A stretch of DNA of 32,360 nucleotides from an uncultured Candidatus Saccharibacteria bacterium. GTDB taxonomy: Bacteria; Patescibacteriota; WWE3; UBA101185; UBA10185. The notes beneath the pieces were generated by a model. The model was not told the origin of the DNA, ran no database searches, and saw nothing but the letters and a program-made list of their open reading frames with translations. Below are positions 15,799 to 32,315 of the stretch, in pieces; position 1 is the first letter of the stretch; every line of letters begins with the position of its first letter. Both the position numbers and the translations under genes were made by a program. The stretch lies in contig CAZGUN010000001.1 of NCBI GenBank assembly GCA_964529125.1, positions 1-32,360 on the forward strand, in the 5' to 3' direction.

Positions 15799-16574
15799 TG
15801 TTTGAGTTTCTTTGAGGCAGTGTGGGCAGAAATTATCAAGGTGTCATCAAGTTTGTCTAAATCTTCTAGGCCTAAGCTCTTTGCAATTAGATAATCGGCT
15901 AGATGGGGATTTCTTGCAAGTACCGGGCCGTGAAGGTAGGTTCCGATGGAGTTTTTATAAATTATCCCCTCGGCACCATCTTCAGAATTATTACCGTGCC
16001 CCATTACAATCTTTGCGAAGGGTTGCGCGCCCTTTTCTAAATATGTTCGCCCCCCATGATTTTCAAAACCTACCAGGGTATTTCCAATCGTGTTAATTTT
16101 TTTGAATAGGGGGTCGGATTTTATCTGATCTTCAATTTCGCAAACAACATTCCCTATGCATCGTGGTTTATGGTTACCAAAGTGCTCTGTGTAAACATTA
16201 AAAATACCAAGACCGTCCAGCATACTACCATCCGCGGATTTATAGTATTTACCAAAAAGCTGATAAGAGCCGCAGATGTATAAACCAACCCCGCCTTCCC
16301 CCACGTACTCTTTTAGATAATTACCTTTGGTTTCAAGCAAATCCTTATACATACCTTTTTGGCTTGAGTCCGGGCCGCCACCCATAAAGACAATATCCAG
16401 GCTATCCATTAACTCCTCGGTCACTTCAGTTTCCACATTAACGTGCACTACTTTTGCGTCAATTCCCCTGGCTTTTGCCCTGGACAAAAGTATTTGCACA
16501 TTTCCATCATCTCCGTATAGGTTAAGCAGGTCCGGGTAAAAGTAACCGATTGTTAGTTTCTTTTCCAAGTTCAT
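15795..16574 (-). CDS. gatD: Lipid II isoglutaminyl synthase, glutaminase subunit GatD (CobQ-type GATase)
   Basis: 259 aa. Supporting motifs are YPDLLNLYGDDGNVQIL, YICGSYQLFG (catalytic Cys) and GTYLHGPVLARNPHLADYLI. It overlaps murT by 4 nt. Confidence 0.8.
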   Translation of the reverse strand: MNLEKKLTIGYFYPDLLNLYGDDGNVQILLSRAKARGIDAKVVHVNVETEVTEELMDSLDIVFMGGGPDSSQKGMYKDLLETKGNYLKEYVGEGGVGLYICGSYQLFGKYYKSADGSMLDGLGIFNVYTEHFGNHKPRCIGNVVCEIEDQIKSDPLFKKINTIGNTLVGFENHGGRTYLEKGAQPFAKIVMGHGNNSEDGAEGIIYKNSIGTYLHGPVLARNPHLADYLIAKSLGLEDLDKLDDTLIISAHTASKKLKQ

Positions 16575-17719
16575 AAAATTGCCCTTCCGGTTAAAACTTT
16601 TCTAAGTTGTAACATGGCCGAATAGTTAGGCAGGGCTAAAATATCTTTCGCCGACCCGGCCAAACCGACCGCCTGAACTGCTTCCTCAACCGTTTCGAAA
16701 ATATTTTCTTTTTTAATTTCTACGCCTGCGTACTTTAACCTAACCGCCATATCCAAACCCCTTGTTCCCGTAACATAGATATTTTTTCCCTCGCAGGCTT
16801 TCTGTAGCTTCTCCGTCTCAATATCATAAATCCACGAAACATCCCGGCCATCGGGAATTTTATCGTTAAAAACAAAAACGAGGGTGTCAGCGCTGACCTC
16901 TCCGCTTAGAATAATATCTAGGTTGTTATTAAAACTCGCGGGGTTTTTTGCTAACAAAATTTTCCAAGGCTTTCCGGCATGTGTTATGGTTTCGCCTCTG
17001 CCGTAAGCAAAATTAAAGGTTTTTAGGGCTTTTGAGATGCTCTCGTCAGCAATACCTACAAGTTGGGCGGTATAAACGGCCGCGTTAACATTTTTTGCGT
17101 TAAACTCTCCCACCAACGATGTTTGTTTTAAGTAGGTACTATCACCGTCAAAGTAAGTAATATCGCCCTCAAAAACCTCTGGAAGCTGTTTAAAATACTT
17201 TTGGGTAGAATCCAAAACAAGCTCCGCCGAAGGATCCATAGTGTCTATTGCCGAAAGCCATTTTTCCAAAATAATATCCACTTCTCCGTACCTATCAAGC
17301 TGATCTCGGGAAAGGTTCAGTAAAACTAAAACATTCGGTGAAAAATATTCTAAAACCACAGGGAGGTTATTTTCATCAACCTCAAAAACTGCGATATCCG
17401 AACCATGCTTACCTTTCCAATCCATATCTAGTAAAACGGCTGAGACAACTCCATTTAGCAAATTGGCTCCTGTTCTATTATACGTAACCTTTAAACCACT
17501 TGTTTCAAAAATGTGGGTGAGAAGCTTGGAAGTTGTAGTCTTGCCATTGGTTCCTGTAAGAAGCACTACGCCCATCGGAAATTTGAAACGTGTGTTTTTT
17601 GCAACTTTGGGATTTATATTTAAAGCGAAATGCCCCGGCCAAGTGTATCCGGCACCAAGGTGTAGGAAATTAATTATAAAGTTTAATGTTTTTGATAACC
17701 AGAGAATTAAATAGAACAT
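16571..17719 (-). CDS. murT: Lipid II isoglutaminyl synthase, Mur-ligase-like subunit MurT
   Basis: Supporting motifs are GTNGKTTT (P-loop), NLSRDQLDRYGE and DGRDVSWIYD (DUF1727-like C-terminal domain). I place the start at ATG 17719. The track ORF extends to a TTG at 17737. Confidence 0.8.
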   Translation of the reverse strand: MFYLILWLSKTLNFIINFLHLGAGYTWPGHFALNINPKVAKNTRFKFPMGVVLLTGTNGKTTTSKLLTHIFETSGLKVTYNRTGANLLNGVVSAVLLDMDWKGKHGSDIAVFEVDENNLPVVLEYFSPNVLVLLNLSRDQLDRYGEVDIILEKWLSAIDTMDPSAELVLDSTQKYFKQLPEVFEGDITYFDGDSTYLKQTSLVGEFNAKNVNAAVYTAQLVGIADESISKALKTFNFAYGRGETITHAGKPWKILLAKNPASFNNNLDIILSGEVSADTLVFVFNDKIPDGRDVSWIYDIETEKLQKACEGKNIYVTGTRGLDMAVRLKYAGVEIKKENIFETVEEAVQAVGLAGSAKDILALPNYSAMLQLRKVLTGRAIL

Positions 17720-17737
17720 ATCCCCAACCCCATTCAA

Positions 17738-18024
17738 TAAATTAACTATATATTAAATACGTAGCATTAGTAATAGAAGGTGTTGATAAGTGTATAACAT
17801 GAAGTTTTGTTGCGCCGGCAGCCTAAACAACCTTTCGTCCTTGTATATAACCTAAATTGTTGATATTTCGTTGCGGCCCCAGGCTCTTAGAAGGGCTTTG
17901 CACAGGTTTGACCGTCGTTACAACCTTTTCTAATGTTGAAAACCCCTAAAATCTTGTGAATAACCTTGTGGATAACTAGGCCAGTTTATCCCCATGCCCT
18001 ATAAAATAGAAATACTTATCCCCT
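17738..18024. promoter_or_regulatory. Candidate oriC module: AT-rich tract, TAG/TAA trinucleotide run and a DnaA-box cluster between murT and the dnaA 3' end
   Basis: The perfect box TGTGGATAA lies at 17967..17975. One-mismatch boxes are TGTGAATAA (17955..17963), TTATCCCCA (17986..17994) and TGTTGATAA (17781..17789). A two-mismatch box TTATCCCCT lies at 18016..18024. An AT-rich stretch spans 17738..17760, followed by TAG-CAT-TAG-TAA-TAG-AAG at 17762..17779. Confidence 0.6.
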
Positions 18025-19399
18025 AATCCTCCAACACCTTTTTAATATTCTCAATGTCCCTTCTTGTTTTTACTTCCTGAAGCATTTCGTCCCCTACTTT
18101 CTGAACCCCATGCATTATCGTTGTGTGATCCCGTCCGCCCATTAGCTCCCCAATACTCATATACGGAGTCTCAGTCATTTCATACATTAAGTACATCGCA
18201 ATTTGTCTTGGAACAACAATTTCTTTGGTTCTTCTGCTCCCCTTTAAATCTGTCACGCGAACCGAATAATAATTTGCGACGGTTTTTATAATATCGTTTG
18301 TGTTAACCGTTCGTTTAATTTTTTCTCTTATTATTGAACCTTCCAATGCACTTTTTGCAACTTCTAGTGTTGGTGCAACTTTGTTGGCTTGGGCTTGAGT
18401 TAAAACCTGCAGGTAAGCACCTTCAAGCTCCCTAATGTTTGTATCAATTTTTTCGGCAATAAAATCTATTACCTCGTTTGGAACGCTGTGTCCTGCCTGA
18501 TCACGCTTGGTTCTAAGAATAGCAATTCTTGTGTCAACGTCCGGTTTTGAGATGTCCGAAATAATGCCGCTACTAAGCCTGGAAGTCACTCTTTCTTCCA
18601 AGTCTGTAAAGTCTTTAGGCGGACGATCTGAGGCAATCACAATCTGTTTTTGAGCCATGTGTAAAGTGTTGAAGGTGTGAAAGAACTCTTCCTGGGTCGC
18701 TTCTTTTCCGGCAATAAATTGAATGTCATCCAGCAAAAACACATCCACCGTTCTATATTTATTCCTAAACCAGCTTGTGCCTCCCGAACCCCCGCGGGCC
18801 CCGCTTCTAATCGCGTCAATTATTTCGTTTCCAAAAGTTTCACCAGTTGTATAAATAACTTTCAGATTTGGATGTTTTTGAACAATTTCATTTCCAATCG
18901 CATGCATCAAGTGAGTTTTGCCTAGGCCCACACCTGAGTATATAAAAAACGGATTGTAAAGTTTTCCAGGCTTTTCAGCAACAGCCGAAGCAATAGCGTG
19001 GGCAAGCTGGTTGTTGGAGCCCATGATGTAGCTGTCAAAAGTCATATGTGGGGAAAGCCCGGCTTTTGTTGATCTTGAAGCCGCCGCCTCGCTCATTGCT
19101 TTTGCTTGAGGCTCAAAAAGCGGACCAAGCTCCTGCGAACCGTTTTTCGAAATAACATCGCCTACTTTAAAAATAAGCTTGTAATGCCCTTTCCCTATTT
19201 TATTTACGCTGTCTTGAACAAGTGAACGAAGCCTTCCCTCTAACTGTCTTTTAGCGAAAGGGTTTTCGCATACAACCTCCAAAGAATCTTTTGTTAAAGC
19301 CTGGGCACGGGTTTTTTGAACCCAGGTTTTAAACTGGGTTTCTGAGAGGTTTACTTGCAGTTCGGCAAGAACTGCTTTCCATAAATCTTTTACATCCAT
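18023..19399 (-). CDS. dnaA: Chromosomal replication initiator protein DnaA
   Basis: Supporting motifs are NPFFIYSGVGLGKTHL (Walker A), the AAA+ body, and the C-terminal DnaA-box-binding domain (VVPRQIAMYLMYEMT...HTTIMHG). I place the start at the ATG giving MDVKDLWKAVLAELQ (19399). The 22 extra codons up to 19465 would run through a DnaA box. Confidence 0.9.
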   Translation of the reverse strand: MDVKDLWKAVLAELQVNLSETQFKTWVQKTRAQALTKDSLEVVCENPFAKRQLEGRLRSLVQDSVNKIGKGHYKLIFKVGDVISKNGSQELGPLFEPQAKAMSEAAASRSTKAGLSPHMTFDSYIMGSNNQLAHAIASAVAEKPGKLYNPFFIYSGVGLGKTHLMHAIGNEIVQKHPNLKVIYTTGETFGNEIIDAIRSGARGGSGGTSWFRNKYRTVDVFLLDDIQFIAGKEATQEEFFHTFNTLHMAQKQIVIASDRPPKDFTDLEERVTSRLSSGIISDISKPDVDTRIAILRTKRDQAGHSVPNEVIDFIAEKIDTNIRELEGAYLQVLTQAQANKVAPTLEVAKSALEGSIIREKIKRTVNTNDIIKTVANYYSVRVTDLKGSRRTKEIVVPRQIAMYLMYEMTETPYMSIGELMGGRDHTTIMHGVQKVGDEMLQEVKTRRDIENIKKVLED

Positions 19400-19437
19400 A
19401 AAAGTTGAGAAATAGAGGGCAAACCTAAATACTCTAC

Positions 19438-19466
19438 TGTGCATAACTATATATAAGTTATCCACA
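19438..19466. promoter_or_regulatory. Inverted pair of DnaA boxes in the dnaA-rpmH divergent intergenic region
   Basis: TGTGCATAA (19438..19446, one mismatch) and the perfect TTATCCACA (19458..19466) are separated by the AT-rich CTATATATAAG. They lie upstream of the dnaA start. Confidence 0.55.
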
Positions 19467-21452: not shown

Positions 21453-22565
21453 GTGAAGTTTACATGCTTACAGGAAAACTTAGCTAAAGGGTTATCTATT
21501 GTGGGCAAAGCCATTTCGGTACGAGCCCCCCTTCCAATTCTTTCAAACGTTTTAATAAATGCTGAAGATGGAAGACTTAAACTTTCCGCGTTTAATATGG
21601 AAACTGGAATTTCTACATACGTCGGGGCCTCCGTTGAAGCAGAAGGTTCAATTACTATTCCCGCAAGACTTTTAAGTGAGTTCGTTTCTTTACTTTCACC
21701 CGGAACCGTAACAGGCGAGCTGAAGGATTCAATTTTGCATCTTTCTTCGGGTGGAACAAAATCAAAGTTTGTTGGTATGGCCGCTTCTGATTACCCAGAG
21801 CTTCCCCAAATGTCCAAAAAGCTTCAAGTATTAGAACTTGCGCCACAGGAATTTTCTTCAGCAATAAACGCAGTGGGATTTTCTGCAGCTTTGGATGACA
21901 GCAGGCCAATTTTAGGTGGGATTTTGCTTAATTATGATAAGGGTGTTTTAACCGCGGTCTCAGCTGATGGGTTTAGGCTTTCCGAAAAAACCCTGAAGGT
22001 TGGCAAGAAAGAAGCAGCCTTTAATGTCGTAGTACCGGCAAAAACCCTCATTGAAGTTGCAAGACTTTTGGGAAGCTCTGATGGGCCAATTAAATTTGCA
22101 TTGGACGCTAACGATAACCTCGCATTATTTGAAGCTGACGGTATTTTAATTTCCACGCGAATAATTGACGGAACTTTTCCTGACTACAAAAAGCTAATTC
22201 CGGGAGAAACTTCTTTAAGCGCGGAATTTTCTGTAAGTGAACTTTTAGAGGCGGTAAAGCTCACAAACGTTTTTGCAAGGGAAATGAATAGTGCAATAAG
22301 TTTAACTTTCGATCCAGAAGGAATGATTTACCTTTCATCTACCGCGCAAGAGTCAGGCGAGAATAACAGCCAGGTTTCTGCAAAAGTAACCGGAGAAAAA
22401 CTAGAAATGGCTTTTAATGCTAAATTCTTGCTGGATTTCTTGAATAACGCTGGTAGTGAGCGTGTTACCTTTTCTACAAACGGAAACATGCTTCCTGGTT
22501 TGTTAAAAGTGGTAGGAGATGAGGATTATCTACACATTATAATGCCGCTGAGAGTTCAGAATTAG
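21453..22565 (+). CDS. dnaN: DNA polymerase III beta sliding clamp
   Basis: 370 aa with a GTG start immediately after the jag stop. Supporting motifs are ILSNVLINAEDGRLKLSAFNMETGI, DSRPILGGILL, IDGTFPDYKKLIP and a three-domain length. Confidence 0.9.
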   Translation: MKFTCLQENLAKGLSIVGKAISVRAPLPILSNVLINAEDGRLKLSAFNMETGISTYVGASVEAEGSITIPARLLSEFVSLLSPGTVTGELKDSILHLSSGGTKSKFVGMAASDYPELPQMSKKLQVLELAPQEFSSAINAVGFSAALDDSRPILGGILLNYDKGVLTAVSADGFRLSEKTLKVGKKEAAFNVVVPAKTLIEVARLLGSSDGPIKFALDANDNLALFEADGILISTRIIDGTFPDYKKLIPGETSLSAEFSVSELLEAVKLTNVFAREMNSAISLTFDPEGMIYLSSTAQESGENNSQVSAKVTGEKLEMAFNAKFLLDFLNNAGSERVTFSTNGNMLPGLLKVVGDEDYLHIIMPLRVQN

Positions 22566-22574
22566 AAAGAGCGT

Positions 22575-24758
22575 TTAGTTTAACTGCGTTACCCGAGTTT
22601 TTCCATCTTCCCCTAAGCTTATTAACCCCTGATTCGAATCGTTTGTGGTGTTTGGTCCGATATCCTGCGCTGGAGTTGAGGTTGGGGGCTTGGGTTGCTG
22701 TACCTGCGGCCGGGCTTGTTGAGGTTGGGAAGCCGGAGTTTGTGGCGTTGGTGGTGGACTTACAGCCCTAACATTTGAAGTCAGCGGAGCTTTGGGAGGT
22801 GTTGGGGCTGTGACCACTGGTCTCGGAACCGTATTTTGCACACCGATTGGTTCATATTTACTAAAATCCACGTTTTGAATTGGTCGGTACGATTGTTTTG
22901 GCGCTTTTGGTTGCGGCATGGATTTTAAGATTTTTTCCTGAGCCTCCGCTCTCATTCTAAGAATTTCCTCCGGGTTTGTCGTTATTAATCTATGTTCCTC
23001 TTCTGACGCCACTACTTTTATAGCTACGTGGTTAGATCCAGCAAAGAACAAACCTTCCCCTTTATCTGCAGCCAAAAGCAATCTTTTCTCACCTTCGGAA
23101 AGATAAAATACTTCTGCAATTCTATCTATTGCCGCGGGGTGTTGTTTCAACAAAACTTGAATCGAAGAGTTACTCACAACTGCATGTCCGTACTCAGACT
23201 TTAAGAAGTCGTCAACATCCTGTGTAATTGTTGTCAATCCCAAGTAATATTTTCTCGCGCGTTTTGCGATACTGTACAAAAACTGTGCACTATCTTTGTT
23301 TTGCATTAAATACCAGGCTTCTTCCATTATCAAAAGTCTTTTTTTCAAATCTTTTCTAATTCGAGTCCAGATAAAATCTAAAATCATAAAAAAGGCAATC
23401 GGTCTTAGAGCGTCTTCAAAATTCCTTGTCGAAAAAACGGTCATTTTAGAACCAAAATTAACATTTGACTGCTGGTCGAATATTCCCGTCATGGAGCCTT
23501 TTATGAACTTTTCCAATCTATCGGCCATGCCGCGAGCCTCAGGTTCTGACGCGCCCAACAGCACTTTATATAAATCTTCCATAACCGGCGGCTCAATGCT
23601 TTGTTGGGTGTCTGGGTCAGGTGTAATCCCCTTTAGACGATAGGTTTCAATTAACGCTCTGTCCAGAATTGCCTCTTCAGTTGGGCTTAAAGCGCCAAGC
23701 ATCAATTTCAAAAGAGTGTGCAGAGAAAGAAGTTTTTGCCCAAGTTCGTTCTCGCCTTCAACCGCGACTCCAGATAAGTCAAACGGATTTATTTTCGAAG
23801 TAGAATTTGCCGAGAAATCTATGTAGTTTCCACCTAAAGCTTCACAAATTGGTCTGTACTCTTCTTCAGGATCAACAATTAAAATTTCCGTCCCAAAAAT
23901 TATTGATCTTATTACTTCAAGTTTTACCATGTAAGATTTTCCTGAACCTGATTTGGCAAAAACTACGGTATTGGCGTTTTCCAAAGAAAACCTGTCGAAA
24001 ATTACCAAAGATCCGTTGTGCTTATTGATTCCGTACATAATTCCCGTATCGGAAGTAAGATCAGACGAAGTGAATGGAAATGTTGTGGCCAAGCTTGTAG
24101 TGTCCATGTTTCTAGTTATCAAAAGCTTATCCACCGCTGTTGGAACTGATGATTGTAGGCCCTGCTCCATTTGCAAAGTTGCGTTCTTAGAAATTAAAAG
24201 CAAAGATCCAAGTGTACCTTCCAAATTTTTAGTTAGGTTGTCCAACTCTTCCAGACTTTCCGCGGGAATTGTTATGTAAAACGAAAATTGGAAGAATTTT
24301 TCTACACCTTTTACTAATTGTTCCTGCAGAGTGTTTGCGTCTTCTAAAGCAGCTACTACTACTGGATCGGCAATCTTTCCTCTTTCCGCATCAGATCTTA
24401 CAGTTGCTTCGAGCTCTGTAATTTTTCTTTTTAAATCATCCAAAATTCCCTGAGACTTAACCGGATAATAAAACATGGAAATATCCAAAGAGTGATCAAA
24501 GTTGATTATTGGAGAAAGCCAGTTTGCGCCAACGAACCTTGGGTAACCCGAAACAAATAGGGTTCTGTAATACGTGTTCCCAACCTTTACGTGATTAAAA
24601 TCTACCTCTATGGCGGAAGGCGCGATTATATCTTTGATATCAACCATACCTCTTCCAATGATTTCCCCCGCCGATTCCCCCTGCTGGGTTTGAATCTGCT
24701 CCTCGCCTGGCGCTTTCCTTGGACTTTTCTTTCCCAGTGTTAATTTTGGTAGTTTCAT
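22575..24758 (-). CDS. virB4: VirB4/TraE-family type IV secretion ATPase with a C-terminal Pro/Gln-rich extension
   Basis: 727 aa. The N-domain pattern is Gram-positive VirB4-like (YYRTLFVSGYPRFVGANWLSPII...DISMFYYP). Walker A AKSGSGKS is at 23934..23957 and a Walker B-like RLLIMEEAW at 23313..23339. GAGGA lies about 10 nt upstream of the ATG. Confidence 0.85.
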   Translation of the reverse strand: MKLPKLTLGKKSPRKAPGEEQIQTQQGESAGEIIGRGMVDIKDIIAPSAIEVDFNHVKVGNTYYRTLFVSGYPRFVGANWLSPIINFDHSLDISMFYYPVKSQGILDDLKRKITELEATVRSDAERGKIADPVVVAALEDANTLQEQLVKGVEKFFQFSFYITIPAESLEELDNLTKNLEGTLGSLLLISKNATLQMEQGLQSSVPTAVDKLLITRNMDTTSLATTFPFTSSDLTSDTGIMYGINKHNGSLVIFDRFSLENANTVVFAKSGSGKSYMVKLEVIRSIIFGTEILIVDPEEEYRPICEALGGNYIDFSANSTSKINPFDLSGVAVEGENELGQKLLSLHTLLKLMLGALSPTEEAILDRALIETYRLKGITPDPDTQQSIEPPVMEDLYKVLLGASEPEARGMADRLEKFIKGSMTGIFDQQSNVNFGSKMTVFSTRNFEDALRPIAFFMILDFIWTRIRKDLKKRLLIMEEAWYLMQNKDSAQFLYSIAKRARKYYLGLTTITQDVDDFLKSEYGHAVVSNSSIQVLLKQHPAAIDRIAEVFYLSEGEKRLLLAADKGEGLFFAGSNHVAIKVVASEEEHRLITTNPEEILRMRAEAQEKILKSMPQPKAPKQSYRPIQNVDFSKYEPIGVQNTVPRPVVTAPTPPKAPLTSNVRAVSPPPTPQTPASQPQQARPQVQQPKPPTSTPAQDIGPNTTNDSNQGLISLGEDGKTRVTQLN

Positions 24759-24764
24759 TTTTTA

Positions 24765-25469
24765 TTATTCCTCAAGAATCGCAGGCTCCACAAGCGCTGT
24801 TCTGTAATCATTTACGTTTGTTCTAATTCTTTGGTTTTGAGAGGTTCCCGGATTGTAAAATTCAAAGTAAAGTTCCACGATTTCCTGCGTGTTTAGCTGT
24901 CTAGCTTTTATTCCAAGTCTGTTAAATTCACCAATCAAGTGCTCCACTTTTGGCAGTAATTCTGGCCTGGCCCTTTCCAGTGCCTGCTCGACATTTACTT
25001 TCACCCTTTTTGCGTGAGTTCCGAAGAGTCTAGTAATCCAGTCAAATGGAGAAGAGCCCAGCTCCTGATACTTTGAGCTTCCAGATGGCACTACCACGTA
25101 AAACTTCTTATCCAAAACGTTATTAACTTTAATAATCTCCTGAATAAATTTTCTGTAAGCCTGCGCCTGTCTTTTTAAAAGAGGATCCGCTAAAGCTTGC
25201 TCTGTTTGGACAACTTTAGCTAGATAGTTTGAAATATCGACTCTTTTGGATCGTATAACAATTTGCATAGGAAACGTTATTGAGTTTAATAGCATGGAAA
25301 AAGCGGCAATGAGCGCGTCTTGTTCAATTTCAGAAAGCAGTGCAAAATTTACAGCAGTAGTTGTTATAACGACCGCCACCCCGCCATTTTTAAGTATCAC
25401 TAAATTGTCTCTTATATCCTCTATGTCTAAATGCTCTTGGGTTGTTGCTTTAATTTCTGGGACAGTCAT
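24765..25469 (-). CDS. Hypothetical soluble protein resembling a stand-alone VirB4/TraC N-terminal domain (no NTPase motifs)
   Basis: 234 aa. TQEHLDIEDIRDNLVILKNGGVAVVITTTAVNFALLSEIEQDALIAAFSMLLNSITFPMQIVI follows the pattern I recall for N-termini of Gram-positive conjugative VirB4 ATPases. It has no Walker A and no TM helix. AGGAAAGG lies upstream of the start. Confidence 0.45.
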   Translation of the reverse strand: MTVPEIKATTQEHLDIEDIRDNLVILKNGGVAVVITTTAVNFALLSEIEQDALIAAFSMLLNSITFPMQIVIRSKRVDISNYLAKVVQTEQALADPLLKRQAQAYRKFIQEIIKVNNVLDKKFYVVVPSGSSKYQELGSSPFDWITRLFGTHAKRVKVNVEQALERARPELLPKVEHLIGEFNRLGIKARQLNTQEIVELYFEFYNPGTSQNQRIRTNVNDYRTALVEPAILEE

Positions 25470-25472
25470 GTT

Positions 25473-26792
25473 CTATGCCTTTCCTACGAACACCAAAGGA
25501 GAAATAATCTGGCCTTTAGCTTCAACGTCAATTATATCAAAGGAATAGCCACTTTCGTTATTAACATCAACCACAACTTTGTAGTGACCGCTTGGCAGAG
25601 GGTTAGTTATAGAAAACTGTCCCAAAGCATTAGTTTTTATAGCCCGTACCGGATCGTTGTGTGCATTTTTAATAATTAGAAGAAGATTAGACAAACTTCT
25701 ATTCCGTGGCCCTCTTACCACACCCGTTACTACATTTGGAATGTTGGTTGGTTGTGGTTCGACCATCTCCGTTTCCTTGACCAATACTTTATTGGTTTCC
25801 GGTTCCTGCACTTTCTGTACCTCTTGTACTTTTGCTTTTGGTAACTCCATCCCCTCGGTTTGACCAAGCTGCTTTAGGAATTGTTTTAATTGCTTGGCCT
25901 TTTCTTCCGCATCTCTACTTACTTCCACGTCCTCAACAGTTTTGAGTACCCTTTCCCCTCTTATTGGAAGTACAATATTACCCTCACTTGAAAGAAGATT
26001 TGTGAATTTTCTTCCGGAGTGTCTATCTGGCGTTATTGGAGATAAAGGTGTCGCAGCACTTTGGGAAGGAGGGATTTTAAATGTCTGTTGTCTTTTTGGT
26101 TTTTTTCTCTGCTGAGGCTTTTGTGGCGACTTTTGTTGACTCTCCCGAGCCCTTTGTTCTCTTTGATCTTTGTCCCCAGCGCTTTCAAGAGCCCCAATCT
26201 CCTTGCCGGTTCCTGGACTCTCCACACTTTCAAAATCTGTTTCCACCAACGGCTCCTCAAGAGCTACAGAAGTTTGCATAGGTTCGGTTGACATAAAAGC
26301 AGCATGGATTTTTTCTATGTACGCTTGCTCAGGAATATCCAAAGGATCAACAGGCTGAGTTTCTTGTTGATATTGCAGAAACTGTTCCAGCTTTCTTCGA
26401 CTTGTTGTTGGAGCTAAAGTTATAAGTTCCTGTTTTACTAAAGCTAGGTTTTCGTGAAGAAATACTGATGGGGGTGTTGCTTCTTTTCGCCAAATCTTTT
26501 GATTCTCCTCGTATATGGCTCTGAAGAAATTAACAATCCATTCGTCCAAACCTCTATCTTCAACAGGGACAAATGCAAAGCCCAGACCAAGAAGAATACT
26601 TCCCACTATTGTTGGCCACTTTAGAACCACGGGAACCCTCAGTGAATATGTGGCATAAGCGATTGCTGCAAATATCATAAGATAGAAAAACTGGCGCATT
26701 GTTAGGTCGCCAATGAGCTTGAACTCAACGTCCATTATGTTTTGCGGAACAGCGTGCTGTTTGTTTGATTGTAACGAATCGGTTATGGGCAT
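25473..26792 (-). CDS. PrgI/VirB3-like membrane protein fused to a charged low-complexity linker and a C-terminal CarboxypepD_reg-like beta-sandwich domain
   Basis: 439 aa. The N-terminus AVPQNIMDVEFKLIGDLTMRQFFYLM plus a two-TM hairpin fits the PrgI (VirB3-like) pattern. The middle is rich in K/Q/E/P (QREQRARESQQKSPQKPQQRKKPKRQQ). The C-terminus VVTGVVRGPRN...AIKTNALGQFSITNPLPSGHYKVVV (about 25476..25739) fits a carboxypeptidase-regulatory-like fold. Confidence 0.6.
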   Translation of the reverse strand: MPITDSLQSNKQHAVPQNIMDVEFKLIGDLTMRQFFYLMIFAAIAYATYSLRVPVVLKWPTIVGSILLGLGFAFVPVEDRGLDEWIVNFFRAIYEENQKIWRKEATPPSVFLHENLALVKQELITLAPTTSRRKLEQFLQYQQETQPVDPLDIPEQAYIEKIHAAFMSTEPMQTSVALEEPLVETDFESVESPGTGKEIGALESAGDKDQREQRARESQQKSPQKPQQRKKPKRQQTFKIPPSQSAATPLSPITPDRHSGRKFTNLLSSEGNIVLPIRGERVLKTVEDVEVSRDAEEKAKQLKQFLKQLGQTEGMELPKAKVQEVQKVQEPETNKVLVKETEMVEPQPTNIPNVVTGVVRGPRNRSLSNLLLIIKNAHNDPVRAIKTNALGQFSITNPLPSGHYKVVVDVNNESGYSFDIIDVEAKGQIISPLVFVGKA

Positions 26793-26829: not shown

Positions 26830-28329
26830 CTACTTCTTGAATTTCTTTTCTCCAAGAACCGCATCCTCAAGCTTTTTGGGTAACCCGGCAGCCCATACAA
26901 AGATTGCCATCACAATTATTGGGGTTGTTAGAGATAATATTGCGTTGACAGCGCTACCGCCAATAATACCGACTGGGTTTAATGGGGTGCTGGTGGATGC
27001 GATAGTGTAGCCAGTAGGGCCACAAAAACCCTCCTCAAAACTTGACCAAGCAAATGCCAGCCCAAAGGCCAACCCAAAAGTTACGATGGGTATTGTTAAA
27101 ACATTAACTGCAAGATGCTTAAACCAAGTAGCTATCGAGCTTTCATTACCCGGTATTGCCCCCCACGCAAACTGTATCGGGGCAGCGATAACCAAAATAA
27201 GAATTTTTGCGTAAGCCACTAACCCCTTTATGATCAAAATCAACTGCAGTATTATGTATACAATAAAAGCTAGTACCCCAAGGAGCAATCCTACAAGTCC
27301 AATCCCACTTGCCGATACTGCGGAGAGAAGGCCGTTTATCATTATGATTCCCTGAAGAAGAGGGCTTAGCCCAGCCTGTACCGCCCGATAAGGTTCCCAT
27401 GCCACAGAAGTAAGGGGTTTTATCAAACCTACGGCAAGAGCCCCTATGGCGTAACTAAATGCGATTAATGCCAAGGAAACTATAATTCTGGGAATTGCAT
27501 ATTGAATGGTGACAGAGGTTCTGGGGTCAATCTGCTTTCTCATCATTATCATCATGCCAACAATAAGCATAAAAACGGCCATCAGACCAAAGGCAAGATT
27601 TCTGGTTAGTTTCCAAAGTCTTAAAACAAAAGGGAATCCGACAAAACTATCGCCGCTAGTATCAATTTCTTGGGCGAAGGCTGTGTCTTTAAGAAACATT
27701 GTGTTAGAAGCAACATCCCTCGCATAAAAAGCCAAACTCACAGGCACAGGTTCGTGGTATAAGGCGTAGGTTGCACCCGTAGCTATTCCTGCCAGACTTC
27801 CCGATGAGGGAGACCTTCCAAGGGGTCCAAGAGGTTCAAGACCGGCCGCTGCCGCCGCTGGATTTGCTGTAAGGGTGGAGCACACGGAGCTATCAAAATC
27901 GGCAAGAAGGTCGTTTACCCCGGGGGGCATTGCACATATCTGCGGCCCACCCAGCTGACCATCTAGTGCAAGTAATGCGCAGGCATTAAGTTCTTCTTGG
28001 CTAAGTCCTACTGTTGCTCCGGTTGGTATATCCAAGAGAAGAGATGTGAACATATCTTGAACCGTTCTTCTTATATCTATGTCAGGTAAAATTCGAGCCC
28101 CAGCCTCCCAGACGCATCCGATAACACCTCCTACGAGTCCGATGGTCCACTCATATAAATCGTCTGGTGAGTCGGTAAAACAAGGAATTGGATCATCTCC
28201 AGGAAGCGGCGCGCCTTGCGCGTACGCTTTATTAAAAGGAGTTACCAAAAGTAGTGAGATGATTAATAAGACAAGTGCAGTTTTAACTCTATTTCCTCTT
28301 GCGAACATATCTAAGTTAAATTTTTTCAT
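26830..28329 (-). CDS. VirB6/TrbL-like polytopic T4SS membrane protein with a Cys-containing N-terminal ectodomain
   Basis: 499 aa. The signal peptide ends in ...NKAYA|QG. An extracytoplasmic region of about 200 aa carries several Cys, and at least 6 TM helices follow. The call rests on architecture and on position next to VirB3- and VirB4-like genes. Confidence 0.55.
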   Translation of the reverse strand: MKKFNLDMFARGNRVKTALVLLIISLLLVTPFNKAYAQGAPLPGDDPIPCFTDSPDDLYEWTIGLVGGVIGCVWEAGARILPDIDIRRTVQDMFTSLLLDIPTGATVGLSQEELNACALLALDGQLGGPQICAMPPGVNDLLADFDSSVCSTLTANPAAAAAGLEPLGPLGRSPSSGSLAGIATGATYALYHEPVPVSLAFYARDVASNTMFLKDTAFAQEIDTSGDSFVGFPFVLRLWKLTRNLAFGLMAVFMLIVGMMIMMRKQIDPRTSVTIQYAIPRIIVSLALIAFSYAIGALAVGLIKPLTSVAWEPYRAVQAGLSPLLQGIIMINGLLSAVSASGIGLVGLLLGVLAFIVYIILQLILIIKGLVAYAKILILVIAAPIQFAWGAIPGNESSIATWFKHLAVNVLTIPIVTFGLAFGLAFAWSSFEEGFCGPTGYTIASTSTPLNPVGIIGGSAVNAILSLTTPIIVMAIFVWAAGLPKKLEDAVLGEKKFKK

Positions 28330-28376: not shown

Positions 28377-30410
28377 ATGGCTTCAGGCAACCCACTTTAT
28401 CCAGGATATTATCCAGGTACACCTTATATTAGAGAACCCTCAGGTGGTGGGTCGAAAAGTAAAAGACCGCCCGAGTATCAACCGAGCACAGCCGACACTT
28501 TTTTTGAAGCTCTTTCAAGTACACCACCAACCTCCATACCATTCTGGCTTTGGCAGCAAGAGGTTCAGCAGGCTGAAGATAGCTTCCTACATTTTGCTGG
28601 AGCTCTAAGCGCGCCAGAGTTAGAAAAAGGGTATGGCCGGTATGCTGGGATAGAAACAGAGATTGAAGCTGGGCAGCAGCAGTTTGGTGCGGAAGAAGCA
28701 CAGGAGCTTCCCGGCGCAGCCGGCATTATGGTAAATCTAAACCCTGTCGATTGGATTAAAGATCCAGTCAAACAGGTCAAAAAGCACTTTGAGAGTTCTT
28801 ATAGAGCCATAGCCGATCTGCAGGATTTTACGACCGATACAAAAGTTCTTATGTGGGCGGGTGAGAAGGATAAGAAGGGTAATGTGACGAGGCCTGGATA
28901 TTTTACTGATGAGAGATCCCCCTTTTATTTAAGGAATGCCGACGGACTTGAAGCTTTGTATAAAGATGTCGAAGTTAGAGTCCCACTTTACATGAGAAAT
29001 AGCGCCTCTGCGATTTTTAGAAACAAAGCCTTTGCGGAGGCGAACGTATCAATACTTAACGCTTTGTCAATAGAGTTATATGCAAAAAGAACCTCATTTA
29101 CTGGAGAGGCTCGTAGGGAGGTTGATCTTTTCGAGGCAGGAGCGGCCGTTGCCGACTCCATGGCTGATCTTGGTGGAGCTTTGTACAAAACAAATGAGTC
29201 TTTTGGCGGGGTTTTTATTAACAAGAGAATATTTGATAAGGATGGAAGAGATAAAACTGCCGATGAGGTTAATAAGTTGGGTGGAGAGATTGCCAGAGCC
29301 AAAGCGGCAATCGGAAAGTTTGAAGGTTTGGGCGTGGAAGTGCCTAAGGAGCTTGGGAAATACAAGGACTTTATACAGACGCTGGATGAGGAGTTTAGTA
29401 GGCATGTACGGGTTGAAAGAGTAGGTGGTGTTTCTAAATGGGTTTTGAATGAGGGGTCAGAAACAGCGCTTAACAAAGTAGTAGACTTCCGCCGGACGCA
29501 ATTATTTAGAGCGACCGCCAATGCCGGTATTGGGGGTACCTACATAAATAACCTTACTAATAGAGAGGTGAGAGATCGAAAATCTAACTTAAACAAAGCA
29601 ATAAATGCTAAGAGAGCAGATGGTTCATACATAGTTAGCGAAGCGGGCCGAAAAGTTGGGTTAGTCTCCGCGATGGTGAGGAGGGACTACGAATGGATGA
29701 CGGCGATGGACTTAGCAAGCGCTTTTGAAGAAGGTAAGCTTTTAAGGCAGTACTTATGGGCCAATATCATTTACCCCCGCATTAAAAGATCTACCCCAAG
29801 CTATTACATAGACAGGTTGAAGGACAAAGTTGTTGCCCACAAATTTACTAAAGACACGTACAAACTTATTAAGGGCAACCGTGTATTTGTTGAGGGGGTT
29901 AGTTTTAAGGGAGTGTTTAAAGGGTATGCAAGGAAGTTAGAGTGGCTACAGAAATCAACTTTAAACAAAGCATACGGATGGGCTTTTAGGCCCGCTGAAA
30001 TGATAGGACGTAGAATTTGGGACGCGGTATTAATAGCGCTTGAAGGTGCATTTGGGGGAGCAACCGGTGGGGTAGGCGCAGTAGTTTTCTGGGTTGTAAG
30101 GCAGGCTTTTGCTTATATTGTTACTAAAGCCACCAAATACTTGAGCAACACTTTCAAAGCCCTTAAGAAAATGGATGCTGGGTATTTTTTTGAAGGCACG
30201 CTTGTTTCACTAGCTAGAATTGTAATGGTAGCAGGAATTGTCTTTGCTATACCGGCGTTTATTATAATAATGCTTTTTGGAATGGTTCTAACGGTGATAT
30301 CCCCTGTGGATTCAACTAAAACTGGAAGTTACAGTGTTGGGCAGGGTACGTTGTCGCCGCAAAACACAACTACTTCTGATCAGACATCCCAACCAATATC
30401 CCCTCCCTAA
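28377..30410 (+). CDS. Orphan 677-aa protein: Pro/Tyr/Gly-rich N-terminus, large soluble region and C-terminal TM helices
   Basis: This uninterrupted 2-kb ORF is transcribed divergently from the VirB6-like gene. I recognised no NTPase or other motif. Hydrophobic helices lie near the C-terminus (IWDAVLIALEGAFGGATGGVGAVVFWVV; IVMVAGIVFAIPAFIIIMLFGMVLTVI), followed by a Ser/Thr/Gln/Pro tail. Confidence 0.6.
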   Translation: MASGNPLYPGYYPGTPYIREPSGGGSKSKRPPEYQPSTADTFFEALSSTPPTSIPFWLWQQEVQQAEDSFLHFAGALSAPELEKGYGRYAGIETEIEAGQQQFGAEEAQELPGAAGIMVNLNPVDWIKDPVKQVKKHFESSYRAIADLQDFTTDTKVLMWAGEKDKKGNVTRPGYFTDERSPFYLRNADGLEALYKDVEVRVPLYMRNSASAIFRNKAFAEANVSILNALSIELYAKRTSFTGEARREVDLFEAGAAVADSMADLGGALYKTNESFGGVFINKRIFDKDGRDKTADEVNKLGGEIARAKAAIGKFEGLGVEVPKELGKYKDFIQTLDEEFSRHVRVERVGGVSKWVLNEGSETALNKVVDFRRTQLFRATANAGIGGTYINNLTNREVRDRKSNLNKAINAKRADGSYIVSEAGRKVGLVSAMVRRDYEWMTAMDLASAFEEGKLLRQYLWANIIYPRIKRSTPSYYIDRLKDKVVAHKFTKDTYKLIKGNRVFVEGVSFKGVFKGYARKLEWLQKSTLNKAYGWAFRPAEMIGRRIWDAVLIALEGAFGGATGGVGAVVFWVVRQAFAYIVTKATKYLSNTFKALKKMDAGYFFEGTLVSLARIVMVAGIVFAIPAFIIIMLFGMVLTVISPVDSTKTGSYSVGQGTLSPQNTTTSDQTSQPISPP

Positions 30411-30868
30411 TTTCCAGGATAGTCAACACAACCTATGCCCCCTTGATTACAGTCGTTTATCATAGTAACAAACTGGGTTACGGCGTTTCGGAGAGCTGTT
30501 GCAGGATCTAGCAAAGCTATGTTAAGTCCAAAAGCCCCAATCAGGATTCTGATAAATACAAAAACACCAATTACTATAATAAACCCCACTACCGCTAAGG
30601 TGAGTGTATCTTTTGCACCCTGAAGTCCCTTTGGATCTCCTTGAGACAGTGAGTATTTGTAACCGGAAACAAAAAGCATTATCAAAAAAACAGCCCCAGA
30701 CATATAAACAAGTAGGTTCAATCCCCTAAAGATAAAATCAAATACTGGTCCCAGGTCGTTTGGGACATCGCTTTGGGCGTATGCGATTCTGTGCAGCTTA
30801 GCAAGTACTGCAGTAGTAAATAAAAATAAGGGTTTTAATTTATTTGTTTTAATGTTTAAGTTTTTCAT
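30407..30868 (-). CDS. TrbC/VirB2-like T4SS pilin paralog 1 (C-terminal extension with a Cys pair)
   Basis: 153 aa. The signal peptide ends in IAYA|QSD. The two-helix hairpin core carries the shared loop motif SGYKYSLSQGDPKGLQGAKDTL. The C-terminus has CNQGGIGC and ends in ...DYPGN. Confidence 0.6.
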   Translation of the reverse strand: MKNLNIKTNKLKPLFLFTTAVLAKLHRIAYAQSDVPNDLGPVFDFIFRGLNLLVYMSGAVFLIMLFVSGYKYSLSQGDPKGLQGAKDTLTLAVVGFIIVIGVFVFIRILIGAFGLNIALLDPATALRNAVTQFVTMINDCNQGGIGCVDYPGN

Positions 30869-30876
30869 ATTTTATA

Positions 30877-31338
30877 CTAAAAAGGCACCGGATTTGGAGG
30901 TTGCCCCGGCGGAATGTGCGCTGGCGGAGGGCCCAAAAAGATACTATCAGGATTTTCAACACCAAGCACATTAATGATCACACCCATTATGGCAAAAGCC
31001 CCAACAGTTACTAATAAAGCTACTATGCTGTACGTAAGTGCTTGCTTTGCACCCATCGCAGCCTTCACATCCCCCCGACTTGACATGTATTTTATTCCAG
31101 AAAGGATTGTAGCTATAAGAGATAGAGCTATACCAATTCCCAAAGCTATGTTAATTACTATTCCAGCCAAATCCTCAACAGTTTTAATTTCGCCTGTGTT
31201 TCCTATAGAGTTTTCAGAAATGCTTTTCAGTAGATCGTTCCACTCTTGCGCCCTTGCCATAGCGGTATTTGCTACAAGAAGAAACCCTAGACAACCTAAC
31301 AATATGAGTACTTTTGAATATTTTGGGAGTCTTGTCAT
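30877..31338 (-). CDS. TrbC/VirB2-like T4SS pilin paralog 2
   Basis: I place the start at ATG 31338 (MTRLPKYSKVLILLGCLGFLLVANTAMA|RAQ, a canonical signal peptide). The track ORF begins at TTG 31359. The core loop is SGIKYMSSRGDVKAAMGAKQAL. The Pro-rich C-terminus ends in ...PNPVPF. Confidence 0.6.
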   Translation of the reverse strand: MTRLPKYSKVLILLGCLGFLLVANTAMARAQEWNDLLKSISENSIGNTGEIKTVEDLAGIVINIALGIGIALSLIATILSGIKYMSSRGDVKAAMGAKQALTYSIVALLVTVGAFAIMGVIINVLGVENPDSIFLGPPPAHIPPGQPPNPVPF

Positions 31339-31365
31339 TACGGAAATAAGTATAAACAATAACTT

Positions 31366-31400
31366 AAAGAAAACAAAATGCCCCGCGCTTGGCGAGGCAT
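31366..31400 (-). terminator. Rho-independent terminator downstream of pilin paralog 3
   Basis: The minus-strand RNA reads AUGCCUCGC-CAAGC-GCGGGGCAU, a 9-bp GC-rich stem (one G-U pair) with a 5-nt loop. UUUUGUUUUCUUU follows. It lies in the 63-nt gap between paralogs 3 and 2. Confidence 0.6.
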
Positions 31401-31422
31401 CTTGTTAACTAAGCAGAAAGTA

Positions 31423-31764
31423 CTAAAAGCCCGGAGGCGTTACACCCGGCACAGCTGTACTTGTAGGAGCACCAATAATGTTTAGCAAGACCGTTCTAAT
31501 GGTGAAAGCTCCAATAACCACGATAAATCCAATTACTGCGTTGGTTAAAGAAGTTCTAGCTTCTTGAGCTGCTTTCTGATCACCTTTGGAGGTAATGTAT
31601 TGAATACCGCCTAAGATCAAAAAGACAATCGTTAAAGCAACACCTATTCCGAGAACAATGTTTATAGCCAAACCCAAAATTTCAGGTAATGTGTCAACAG
31701 ACAAGTTTATTATCGTCGGGGTCGTAGGAATGCTTTGTGCGTATACGTGTTGTAATAATGGCAT
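31423..31764 (-). CDS. TrbC/VirB2-like T4SS pilin paralog 3 (no hydrophobic signal-peptide core)
   Basis: 113 aa. The strong Shine-Dalgarno AAGGAGGTG lies about 8 nt upstream, and an in-frame TAA 12 nt upstream rules out a longer N-terminus. The core loop is GGIQYITSKGDQKAAQEARTSL. The protein ends in ...TPPGF. Confidence 0.65.
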   Translation of the reverse strand: MPLLQHVYAQSIPTTPTIINLSVDTLPEILGLAINIVLGIGVALTIVFLILGGIQYITSKGDQKAAQEARTSLTNAVIGFIVVIGAFTIRTVLLNIIGAPTSTAVPGVTPPGF

Positions 31765-31789: not shown

Positions 31790-32278
31790 TTAAAAACCAG
31801 GATCGCTTCCTGTAATTAAACTACCAATTAATATTCGCAGGATACCTATAGATAATAGAACGAATAACATGCCCATTATAGCAGATGTGAGCTGTTCTTT
31901 AGCCTCCATTGTCTTTTTTGGATCTCCCTGGCTAGTCATAAACATATAACCGCCTACAACTATGAGGATAAACCCAATGATAATTGCGAGGGGTAGGGTT
32001 ATGTTATACACAATTTTGATAAGACCGCTAACGTCAAACCCCTTTCCAATGATAGGCCCGGGAGGTGTGCCTGTGCATTGGCAACTAAAGTTTCCCTGGT
32101 CATTGGGCACACACTGCCCGCCTGTGTAACCGCCTGCAATACATGCTGAAGCGCACGCATGGGCTTCGCAGGCTGCGTATACTTTTGCGTCTGTTGTTAA
32201 AAGAAATGCTGTGAGTACAACACAGACAACGGAGGCAATCTTTAAAATTTTTCTTTGATATAATGCGTTCATGCCCAC
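31790..32278 (-). CDS. TrbC/VirB2-like T4SS pilin paralog 4 with an N-terminal six-cysteine (defensin-like) module
   Basis: 162 aa, starting at GTG 32278 or ATG 32272. The signal peptide ends in ...DAKVYA|A. The module ACEAHACASACIAGGYTGGQCVPNDQGNFSCQC follows, then a TGTPPGP linker. The core loop is GGYMFMTSQGDPKKTMEAKEQL. The protein ends in ...SDPGF. Confidence 0.65.
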   Translation of the reverse strand: MGMNALYQRKILKIASVVCVVLTAFLLTTDAKVYAACEAHACASACIAGGYTGGQCVPNDQGNFSCQCTGTPPGPIIGKGFDVSGLIKIVYNITLPLAIIIGFILIVVGGYMFMTSQGDPKKTMEAKEQLTSAIMGMLFVLLSIGILRILIGSLITGSDPGF

Positions 32279-32286
32279 TGTCAGGA

Positions 32287-32315
32287 ATTATCGAGGTTAT
32301 GATACTACGAGTCAA
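32287..32315 (-). promoter_or_regulatory. Putative promoter of the pilin operon (TTGACT-17 nt-GATAAT)
   Basis: On the minus strand TTGACT lies at 32315..32310 and GATAAT at 32292..32287. The -10 ends 8 nt before GTG 32278 and 14 nt before ATG 32272. Confidence 0.45.

Follow-up and report, generated by a model that had tools for sequence, protein, structure and literature searches.

Organization of the lead pilin gene

We analysed a stretch of 32,360 nucleotides from an uncultured Candidatus Saccharibacteria bacterium (contig CAZGUN010000001.1), which is referred to below as the window. Close to its right end, on the minus strand, lies an array of pilin genes of a type IV secretion system (T4SS), whose lead gene (31790..32272, minus strand) starts with ATG, with an alternative GTG start at 32278, and encodes a protein of 160 amino acids (aa) that is identical to the database protein P0001. 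Between the signal peptide and the pilin core of this protein there is a 33-residue module with six cysteines that very probably has the cysteine-stabilised alpha/beta (CSab) fold, also known as the cis-defensin or scorpion-toxin-like fold. The module had been pointed out in an earlier sequence-only reading of the window; what that reading missed is that the pilin, otherwise conserved, appears to have a recombination hot-spot at which this module is interchangeable with several other inserts. This cassette behaviour, drawn like everything reported here from computation, is the main new result.

The n-, h- and c-regions of a Sec-type signal peptide can be read from the sequence in residues 1-33 (32174..32272, minus strand), in the order MNALYQRKILK, IASVVCVVLTAFLL and TTDAKVYA, with a hydrophobic stretch of 14 residues. 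Cleavage is predicted at VYA↓A, and the leader and its (V/S)YA site are retained in orthologs with and without an insert. The module follows as residues 34-66 (32075..32173, minus strand), an assignment based on codons, profile matches and predicted structure; its codons, read from 32173 to 32075, give the 33 residues ACEAHACASACIAGGYTGGQCVPNDQGNFSCQC. The sequence-only reading had translated all of these correctly, except that it placed in front of them one extra Ala, which belongs to the codon 32176-32174. Its description of the surroundings also held: the cysteines are spaced C-x4-C-x3-C-x9-C-x9-C-x-C and include the CxxxC, GxC (GGQC) and CxC (CQC) elements, the module stands directly after the KVYA↓A site and before the TGTPPGP linker, and it is absent from the three paralogs of the array (31423-31764, 30877-31359 and 30407-30868).

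Behind the module, a flexible linker rich in Pro and Gly (residues 67-82, TGTPPGPIIGKGFDVS, 32027..32074, minus strand) is delimited by the confidence of the structural model and by comparison with the ortholog of locus L020; in the AlphaFold model of the full mature protein, pLDDT falls below 50 over mature residues 40-48. Two hydrophobic pilin helices complete the protein. The first (residues 83-114, 31931..32026, minus strand; helix 50-81 of the AlphaFold model in mature numbering) is strongly conserved across orthologs. The second (residues 119-155, 31808..31918, minus strand; helix 86-122 of the model) comes after a TSQGDPKK loop, and the orthologs share over this loop and helix 2 the invariant block MTSQGDP...LTSAIMG...GILR. 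The C-terminus of the protein is a conserved DPGF. Upstream of the gene, a sigma-70-like promoter match, TTGACT-17-GATAAT (32287..32315, minus strand), agrees with the consensus at 10 of 12 positions and is proposed from this match only; in the alignment block of window positions 32241-32300, the window and allele L016 are identical at 60 of 60 positions.

Sequence profiles and structural models of the module

Used as a single query with phmmer, the module sequence retrieved 14 matches in the PDB, 12 of them CSab proteins; nasonin-1M and scorpion defensin-1 were the best (E ~0.04), and an 'arthropod defensin' and K+-channel toxins were among the others. With a profile of three pilin modules, 36 of 36 PDB matches were CSab structures, the best of them 2RU0 (E 1.4e-3), which PMC11561630 describes as the structure of actinfensin from Actinobacteria. 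A profile of 17 module sequences matched nasonin-1 at E 1.7e-4 and plectasin at ~4e-3, and over the three- and 17-sequence profiles plectasin was found at E ~4e-3 to 4e-2.

When the three-module profile was compared exhaustively with 1.84 billion representative proteins, 10 of them reached E<=1e-3, namely the pilin alleles, P0009, P0010-P0012, P0014, P0016, P0015 and one false positive, P0013. Beyond the pilin alleles and P0013, all are defensin-like repeat proteins: P0009, from the moth Trichoplusia ni, has five tandem nasonin-like domains (E 7.7e-13 with this profile), and P0010-P0012, P0014 and P0016 are tandem-repeat proteins from Logan assemblies. A word-indexed homology search with the 17-module profile yielded a single protein, P0017 from the fly Pseudolycoriella hygida, a relative of the repeat proteins. 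P0009 exceeds the Pfam gathering scores of Gamma-thionin and Defensin-like, and P0012, P0016 and P0017 exceed those of SLR1-BP and Toxin_3. The homology of the module to the CSab superfamily is therefore supported transitively, since P0009, P0012 and P0016, which the pilin-module profile matches at E 7.7e-13 to 5e-4, pass the family thresholds themselves.

A separate observation concerns P0015 (MBI1857770.1), an Asp/Cys-rich protein of 231 aa from a Candidatus Melainabacteria metagenome-assembled genome (MAG). It contains two modules much like that of the pilin, with a trailing …SCTCTGAP, and is the sole non-pilin bacterial relative found among the 1.84 billion representatives.

The predicted structure points to the same fold. 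From a mixed 17-sequence alignment, AlphaFold modelled the module with a pLDDT of 78 as a helix at 9-18 (carrying C12 and C16) and two strands at 23-28 (C26) and 34-39 (C36 and C38); from a pilin-only alignment of the whole mature protein it produced the same helix-strand-strand unit, with pLDDT 77-81, followed by the disordered linker and a long helical hairpin. In these models the helix spans CxxxC, strand 1 bears GxC and strand 2 bears CxC, as the CSab fold requires. The top 50 Foldseek matches in the PDB are all CSab proteins, with E-values of at least 0.07; the best size-matched superpositions are those on nasonin-1M (target TM-score 0.76, rmsd 2.0 A) and on Centruroides defensin-1 (0.74, 1.4 A). 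Disulfides C1-C4, C2-C5 and C3-C6 would be expected from this arrangement. The fold suggested by the sequence-only reading is supported by sequence profiles and by structure prediction with Foldseek comparison. The cysteines are conserved as well: the orthologous alleles P0002 and P0003 retain all six, and also G16 and the GG in front of C4, without exception, even though the synonymous sites of the module are saturated. What is conserved between alleles amounts to the six Cys and three Gly of the module and two Pro of the adjacent linker, and the surface residues are not conserved.

The most sceptical explanation is that no folded domain exists and that the six cysteines arose by chance or from the composition of a low-complexity linker, or that C1 is the lipidation site of a lipoprotein. 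It could draw on the single-sequence Pfam matches, which are sub-threshold, and on the Foldseek E-values above 0.05. We regard it as hardly credible: six cysteines stay invariant across saturated divergence, the profile matches are limited to one fold class, and two independent AlphaFold runs agree. The module goes beyond chance because of its Cys/Gly invariance, because the profile matches are exclusively defensin-like and because the PDB matches are all CSab. As for a lipobox at C1, it was rejected, given a Tyr at -3 in the window protein, an Asp at -1 in P0002 and no conservation of the preceding residues.

Within the superfamily, the module is set apart by its n-loop. This loop, between C1 and C2, has four residues, and one residue only precedes C1 in the predicted mature protein; Lys and Arg are lacking, and the net charge is -2 (-2 to 0 among alleles). 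By sequence, the module would belong to the short-n-loop, nasonin-like subtype and not to the classical long-n-loop defensins. The resemblance to plectasin and insect defensin A noted in the sequence-only reading did not hold, the 4-residue n-loop being that of the nasonin and scorpion short-toxin subtype. Nasonins, scorpion defensin-1, cobatoxin and termicin form such a 'non-classical' short-n-loop group (PMC2853521), and a short n-loop also defines 'class I' in the scheme of classes I-V for bacterial defensins, which the module fits as well (PMC11561630).

These features bear on a further proposal of the sequence-only reading, that of a contact-delivered antimicrobial, in which the pilus-borne domain would bind lipid II or another wall precursor of the host and locally block or breach wall synthesis, easing access for the episymbiont. 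The defensin-type fold would suit such a role, as would the place of plectasin among the profile matches, and many CSab defensins bind lipid II. In plectasin, however, the N-terminal residues and the n-loop region form the binding site for the lipid II pyrophosphate, and that n-loop has 10 residues against four here. Moreover, no allele has a Lys/Arg cluster, the variation of surface residues around a kept Cys/Gly scaffold is a poor fit to an invariant target such as lipid II, and the module is missing in some orthologs (L020, P0004). Patescibacteria do attach to bacterial hosts, and the T4SS is essential for epibiotic growth in the one species tested (PMC10633639 and PMC12857230), as the proposal would have it; yet nasonin-1, the closest solved relative, is inactive on Gram-positive bacteria (PMC2853521). 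The short n-loop and the net charge leave the lipid II idea unsupported; we consider contact delivery of an antimicrobial improbable, and it is unlikely that the module is a classical cationic lipid II-binding antimicrobial defensin.

Variation of the insert among orthologous pilins

Orthologs of the lead pilin were recognised by the leader M(N/K)xLYQ...(V/S)YA, the core MTSQGDP...LTSAIMG.LFVLL..GILR and the C-terminal ...DPGF. The ortholog of L020 (115 aa) has no insert, and P0004 has a Pro/Gly insert free of Cys. One CSab module is present in the window protein, in the P0002 cluster and in P0003, whose database model is truncated and whose in-frame upstream sequence restores the same signal peptide. 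Two tandem Cys modules are found in L001, L018 and L019, the second being ACNQACSAACIAGGYIGGQCDASGNCRC; module 2 of L001 scores 20 bits against a hidden Markov model (HMM) of the module. Large unrelated Cys-rich inserts occur in P0005, P0006, L021/L022 and L023, in proteins of 172-330 aa, and similar large Cys-rich regions in the more distant WWE3 pilins of L002 and L003. The module HMM detected no CSab module in the other Cys-rich inserts of related loci, and neither further module copies nor silent donor cassettes in six-frame translations of the 32-kb window.

One pair of alleles is L016 (P0002) and L017 (P0003). From the core through the intergenic stretch and into the pilin gene that follows, the two are identical at 59-60 of 60 nucleotides per alignment block, and across the module at 8-25 of 60, where they are essentially unalignable; dS is 0.02 in the core, and the module has pS ~1.0 and pN 0.5. 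By its core, the window protein stands nearest to P0002 and P0003 (dN 0.07) and well away from L001 (0.32); by its module, the nearest is the second module of L001 (dN 0.22, against 0.44 for P0002 and 0.71 for P0003); all these rates, and the dN/dS values given below, come from 21-57 synonymous sites per region with dS saturated in several module comparisons, and are to be read qualitatively. Because a near-identical core is combined with an unalignable module, and because module and core relationships are in conflict, the alleles bear the signatures of replacement of the module by recombination, at a defined site that would have the signal-peptide cleavage point on one side and, on the other, the Pro-rich segment that precedes helix 1.

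Other N-terminal regions were recorded in more distant lead pilins. Those of L002 (3434-4231) and L003 (2658-3413) have N-terminal regions of ~160 aa made of several different Cys-rich units, and one Cys-rich stretch of L002, CAKYGEPCEKPSDCCTGMTCNINTC, is knottin-like by its spacing, C-x6-C-x5-CC-x4-C-x4-C, with no sequence match in the PDB. The distant lead pilins of L004-L007, L009, L010 and L012, from MAGs of Patescibacteria, have 209-317 aa (~300-317 aa except in L009) and carry a large N-terminal ectodomain that ends in a conserved CxxCFxxGGIWTAxGCIP motif just before helix 1. As far as these sequences go, they show N-terminal ectodomains to be probably widespread on T4SS pilins of Patescibacteria.

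The pilin array and its genomic context

The identification of the gene as a pilin follows from Pfam, NCBIfam and gene context, because PDB sequence and Foldseek searches gave no solved pilin: a nine-pilin profile retrieved nothing relevant among PDB sequences, and Foldseek with the full mature model retrieved only module matches and generic helical hairpins, with no solved VirB2 or TraA pilin. The lead pilin matches the Pfam family T4SS_pilin (PF18895) over residues 90-148 (E 4e-5, 23.9 bits, gathering score 26.6) and the Mbov_0395 pilin-like conjugal-transfer family of NCBIfam (E 6.5e-7), and orthologs with a near-identical core exceed the PF18895 gathering score (P0002 30.8, L001 33.6, L002 27.3 and L021 27.2 bits). 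Sequence and the AlphaFold hairpin both present the layout of VirB2/TrbC proteins, in which a leader is followed by two hydrophobic helices with a short polar loop.

Three paralogs without the Cys module complete the array on the minus strand, at 28-33% identity to the lead pilin. Paralog 2 (31423..31764, 113 aa) is above the PF18895 gathering score (E 4.6e-11, 43.1 bits) and is 69% identical to the second pilin of the WWE3 locus L001, which holds a syntenic four-pilin array. Paralog 3 (30877..31359, 160 aa) matches TrbC/VirB2 (PF04956, E 0.002) and the NCBIfam pilin-like family (E 1e-5), and paralog 4 (30407..30868, 153 aa) matches PF18895 (E 1e-4) and the NCBIfam family (E 1.4e-4). Relatives of the lead pilin, in a scan with one genome per GTDB species, are confined to MAGs of Patescibacteria, the best being from candidate division WWE3; some of these MAG records bear obviously wrong 'Pseudomonadales' titles.

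Several details of the array deserve mention. Paralog 2 starts MPLLQHVYA↓Q, without the hydrophobic core of a signal peptide, and its orthologs start MLANLLQPVYA↓V (L001, 4365-4703), MNLVQTVYA↓V (L020, 2772-3110) and LVLQQVFA↓V (L021, 1271-1603); all that is retained is the '(V/A)YA' motif, with which paralogs 1 and 4 likewise close their leaders. Such a start suggests a leader for a dedicated peptidase, or a Sec-independent insertion (yidC is in the window). The C-terminal tail of paralog 4 (30407-30470, minus strand) is extended and contains two Cys, …NDCNQGGIGCVDYPGN, which could pair into a small disulfide loop at the opposite terminus, also facing outwards. A strong terminator-like hairpin (31372-31406, minus strand) with a 15-bp stem, 7 GC pairs and a T-run separates pilin genes 2 and 3, and with it pilins 1-2 may be transcribed more than pilins 3-4. 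A C-terminal Pro-Gly-Phe motif is present in pilins 1-3 (31790-31804, 31423-31437 and 30877-30891, minus strand) and is kept, as …DPGF, …PPGF, …PVPF or …IPGFGE, in paralogs and distant orthologs, including those in L004-L014 and L020-L023. TrbC/VirB2-type pilins are processed at the C-terminus in other systems, and the motif could be a processing, sorting or packing signal.

Core genes of the secretion system lie 5-9 kb from the lead pilin on the same strand. They encode a VirB4-type ATPase of 727 aa (22575-24758; CD1110-family VirB4 of NCBIfam, E 1.6e-114), a TrsD-like protein of 234 aa (24765-25469; TrsD, E 5.7e-8) and a PrgI/VirB3-like protein (25473-26792; Pfam PrgI, E 2.9e-8) that also carries a CarboxypepD_reg domain, which is Ig-like. 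The VirB4 function seems to be split (22575-25469, minus strand) between the 234-aa protein, which is TrsD-like or similar to the VirB4 N-terminal part, and the 727-aa ATPase. Between this core and the array, a large gene (26830-28329, minus strand) and the gene of a 677-aa protein with a C-terminal membrane segment (28377-30410, plus strand) match no Pfam or NCBIfam family; the 677-aa protein has a weak homologue (25% identity, E 3e-9) in L001, encoded at the corresponding position. The T4SS core is directly adjoined by dnaN (21453-22565), jag, yidC and dnaA (18023-19465), the last ~3 kb away.

Judging from families and neighbourhood, the gene would be the lead VirB2-like pilin of a chromosomal, origin-proximal, monoderm-type T4SS of Patescibacteria (WWE3/Katanobacteria-like). 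A chromosomal monoderm-type T4SS with a VirB2-like pilin array has recently been described in Patescibacteria (PMC12102498; review PMC12857230), and PMC10633639 reports the T4SS pilin array to be essential in Southlakia epibionticum.

Two other groups of genes were noted in the window. A MurT/GatD-type pair (15795-17737, minus strand) consists of a Mur ligase with a MurT C-terminal domain and a CobQ-like glutamine amidotransferase, and implies, from sequence, that the organism carrying the window probably has an amidated peptidoglycan of the Gram-positive type. At 1242-1643 (minus strand), a stand-alone gene of the RNase H-like (RVT_3) type is beside a gene for a Wzz-like chain-length determinant and an unannotated open reading frame of 312 aa.

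Possible function of the module

The reading that we favour, with somewhat better than even confidence, is that the module is a binding head, displayed, stabilised by disulfides and exchangeable, which tunes the choice of host surface to be engaged by the T4SS pilus or conduit; we favour it because fold, position and cassette behaviour all agree with it. According to this reading, the protein would be exported by Sec and cleaved at VYA↓A, so that the mature protein begins with the 33-residue CSab mini-domain, of predicted fold and with the disulfides proposed above, which the flexible Pro/Gly linker would tie to the two-helix membrane or pilus core. In VirB2-type pilins both termini point outwards from the filament and sit on the extracytoplasmic side of the membrane. 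The domain would therefore be exposed at the surface of the pilus or conduit of the T4SS, and there it would most likely act as a compact, protease-resistant binder of a surface ligand presented by the host or target cell; exchange of cassettes would retune or diversify pilus recognition.

Surface display of the module is the most economical view of its position. The sequence-only reading had placed the module directly after the signal-peptide cleavage site of a T4SS pilin; our analysis supports this position, at the N-terminus predicted for the mature VirB2-like protein. That reading had also stated that pilin termini face the filament exterior, which agrees with the outward-facing termini of solved T-pili (bioRxiv 10.1101/2022.09.25.509369). 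Once the leader has been removed, the N-terminus lies on the extracytoplasmic side, where disulfides can form.

The alternative bearing most directly on display is that the module is a pro-region or released peptide, cut off in maturation and either discarded as a long leader of the TraA/VirB2 kind or secreted free, so that it never decorates a pilus. Defensins are normally released peptides, and the Pro/Gly linker is exposed and disordered in the model. VirB2, TrbC and TraA are, besides, extensively processed, with long leaders, C-terminal trimming and reported cyclisation (general knowledge and bioRxiv 10.1101/2022.09.25.509369). The sole recognisable signal-peptidase-type site, though, is the VYA↓A that lies upstream of the module at the end of the n/h/c leader, and it is the same in alleles with and without inserts; after the module, the sequence contains neither a second hydrophobic stretch with a small-x-small site nor a dibasic motif. 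In addition, the predicted mature start of the insert-less L020 protein, ATPPPLQLTGF..., is the segment found after the module in the window protein, and a TPPP segment directly after the leader makes the linker part of the normal mature N-terminus. Loss of the module during maturation thus seems quite unlikely.

With regard to what a displayed module would do, its variability points to variable target recognition and not to a conserved enzymatic or antibiotic activity. The same variability can be turned into another explanation, in which a disulfide-rich cap stabilises or shields the pilus, for instance from proteases, or varies to evade phages or host defences, with no specific ligand. The sharp recombination boundaries and cassette-like variability agree with a shield or decoy, and inserts that differ in size and type, down to the Cys-free P0004 and the insert-less L020, would mean that no single binding activity is required; PMC12102498 raises explanations of the antigenic-variation type for pilin arrays. 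On the other hand, purifying selection acts on the scaffold in those alleles that carry the module (dN/dS ~0.1-0.2 where measurable), a folded domain is costlier to keep than a disordered spacer, and the CSab scaffold elsewhere is nearly always ligand-binding, as in toxins, defensins and pollen-coat ligands. We consider a shield or decoy unlikely, while recognising that it overlaps with the binding-head reading and that computation separates the two poorly.

The binding-head reading itself has to be weighed against several points. The window protein stays below the gathering scores not only of PF18895, by the figures given above, but also of SLR1-BP (18.9 vs 22.7 bits) and Defensin-like PF24552 (17.5 vs 27), and the Foldseek E-values are not significant, which is usual for peptides of ~35 residues. 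No visualised T4SS pilus of Patescibacteria appears in the accessible parts of the literature consulted on them (PMC12102498, PMC12857230). If the pilins form a short conduit only, 'display' may mean the cell surface or wall zone and not a filament; maturation downstream of the module by some protease is possible; a domain on every subunit might be sterically costly, and the lead pilin may be a minor or tip subunit. Finally, the binding function is deduced only from variability and from the roles of the CSab scaffold elsewhere.

A broader proposal, which we put forward tentatively and think rather doubtful, is that the lead VirB2-like pilin of WWE3/Microgenomatia-type T4SSs is a natural display platform, where the hot-spot takes interchangeable disulfide-rich cassettes, among them one or two CSab modules as well as Cys-rich modules of other kinds, that decorate the pilus and set the host cell on which it can dock. 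If this were true, cassette swapping would be a host-range switch of these ultrasmall bacteria, and the defensin fold would gain a third role, that of a bacterial adhesin head, beside antimicrobial and toxin. The insect nasonin-like domains, as the closest relatives of the module, would also raise the question of an ancient shared origin versus inter-kingdom transfer.

Much of the diversity of bacteria belongs to Patescibacteria, which live attached to other microbes. A folded, hypervariable and recombining pilin ectodomain would be a concrete, testable candidate for a determinant of host recognition, of interest to the fields of episymbiont-host recognition and defensin evolution, and the 33-residue module is small enough for direct synthesis and testing.

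Comparison with known systems

Both parts of the protein are known, VirB2 arrays of Patescibacteria from 2023-2025 and bacterial cis-defensins from 2020-2024. Neither a pilin-defensin fusion, nor a CSab fold in Patescibacteria, nor cassette behaviour of a T4SS pilin N-terminus was found in the literature searched; full-text searches (pilin with defensin-like and T4SS; defensin with Patescibacteria) gave no described fusion, in agreement with the sequence-only reading, to which none was known. With this module, the defensin/scorpion-toxin fold would reach a phylum and an architecture that are both new for it, the domain being mounted covalently on a filament subunit of a secretion system.

The closest relatives in structure are nasonin-1 (2KOZ/2KP0), Centruroides limpidus defensin-1 (6BAM/6BI5) and the cobatoxin-type scorpion toxins, with which the module shares the six-Cys framework and an n-loop of 4-5 residues; its alignment with nasonin-like peptides gives the common pattern AC-x4-C-x3-CI-x-GY-x-G-x-CV...C-x-C. 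Nasonin-like domains also occur as tandem repeats without processing sites, in insect nasonin-2 and -6 (PMC2853521) and in P0009. The known nasonin-like peptides, however, are free, secreted, cationic and eukaryotic, whereas the pilin module is bacterial and non-cationic, has a C4-C5 loop of 9 residues against 4-5, and is joined covalently to a membrane or pilus protein.

With the bacterial cis-defensins (actifensin/actinomycesin 2RU0, xanthusin-1), the module has in common the CSab fold, three disulfides, which in the module are predicted, and the GxC gamma-core. Unlike the module, those described are small stand-alone secreted peptides of Proteobacteria (including myxobacteria), Acidobacteria and Actinobacteria, and among the bacterial defensins of PMC11561630 none is reported from Patescibacteria and none is fused to another protein (PMC11561630). 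That survey, the largest on bacterial defensins, could not find the pilin module because it dropped proteins longer than 130 aa and those with transmembrane segments, and any search for such defensins that applies filters of this kind will overlook similar fusions.

As a secretion locus, the window resembles the VirB2 arrays of Patescibacteria (PMC12102498) and of Southlakia epibionticum (PMC10633639), where tandem divergent pilins are next to virB4, trsD and prgI and near dnaA. According to PMC12102498, these arrays comprise 2-11 tandem, highly divergent VirB2-like genes beside virB4, trsD, prgI and virB6-type genes, often near dnaA, and occur in monoderm Patescibacteria, Microgenomatia above all. 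The difference lies in the pilins: in the available parts of PMC12102498, PMC12857230 and PMC10633639, they are small two-helix proteins whose variation is discussed between paralogs, and those parts say nothing of folded ectodomains at the N-terminus, of Cys-rich inserts or of cassettes exchanged between alleles of one paralog.

In its mode of variation, the lead pilin resembles the tandemly amplified, variable VirB2 paralogs of Bartonella and Anaplasma (cited in PMC12102498) and the antigenic variation of the gonococcal type IV pilin. In contrast to these systems, no silent donor cassettes were found in the 32-kb window. What the lead pilin appears to share with them is a conserved core, an exposed hypervariable part and mosaic alleles that arise by recombination; what distinguishes it is that its variable part is not a loop but a whole mini-domain, folding independently, at the N-terminus.

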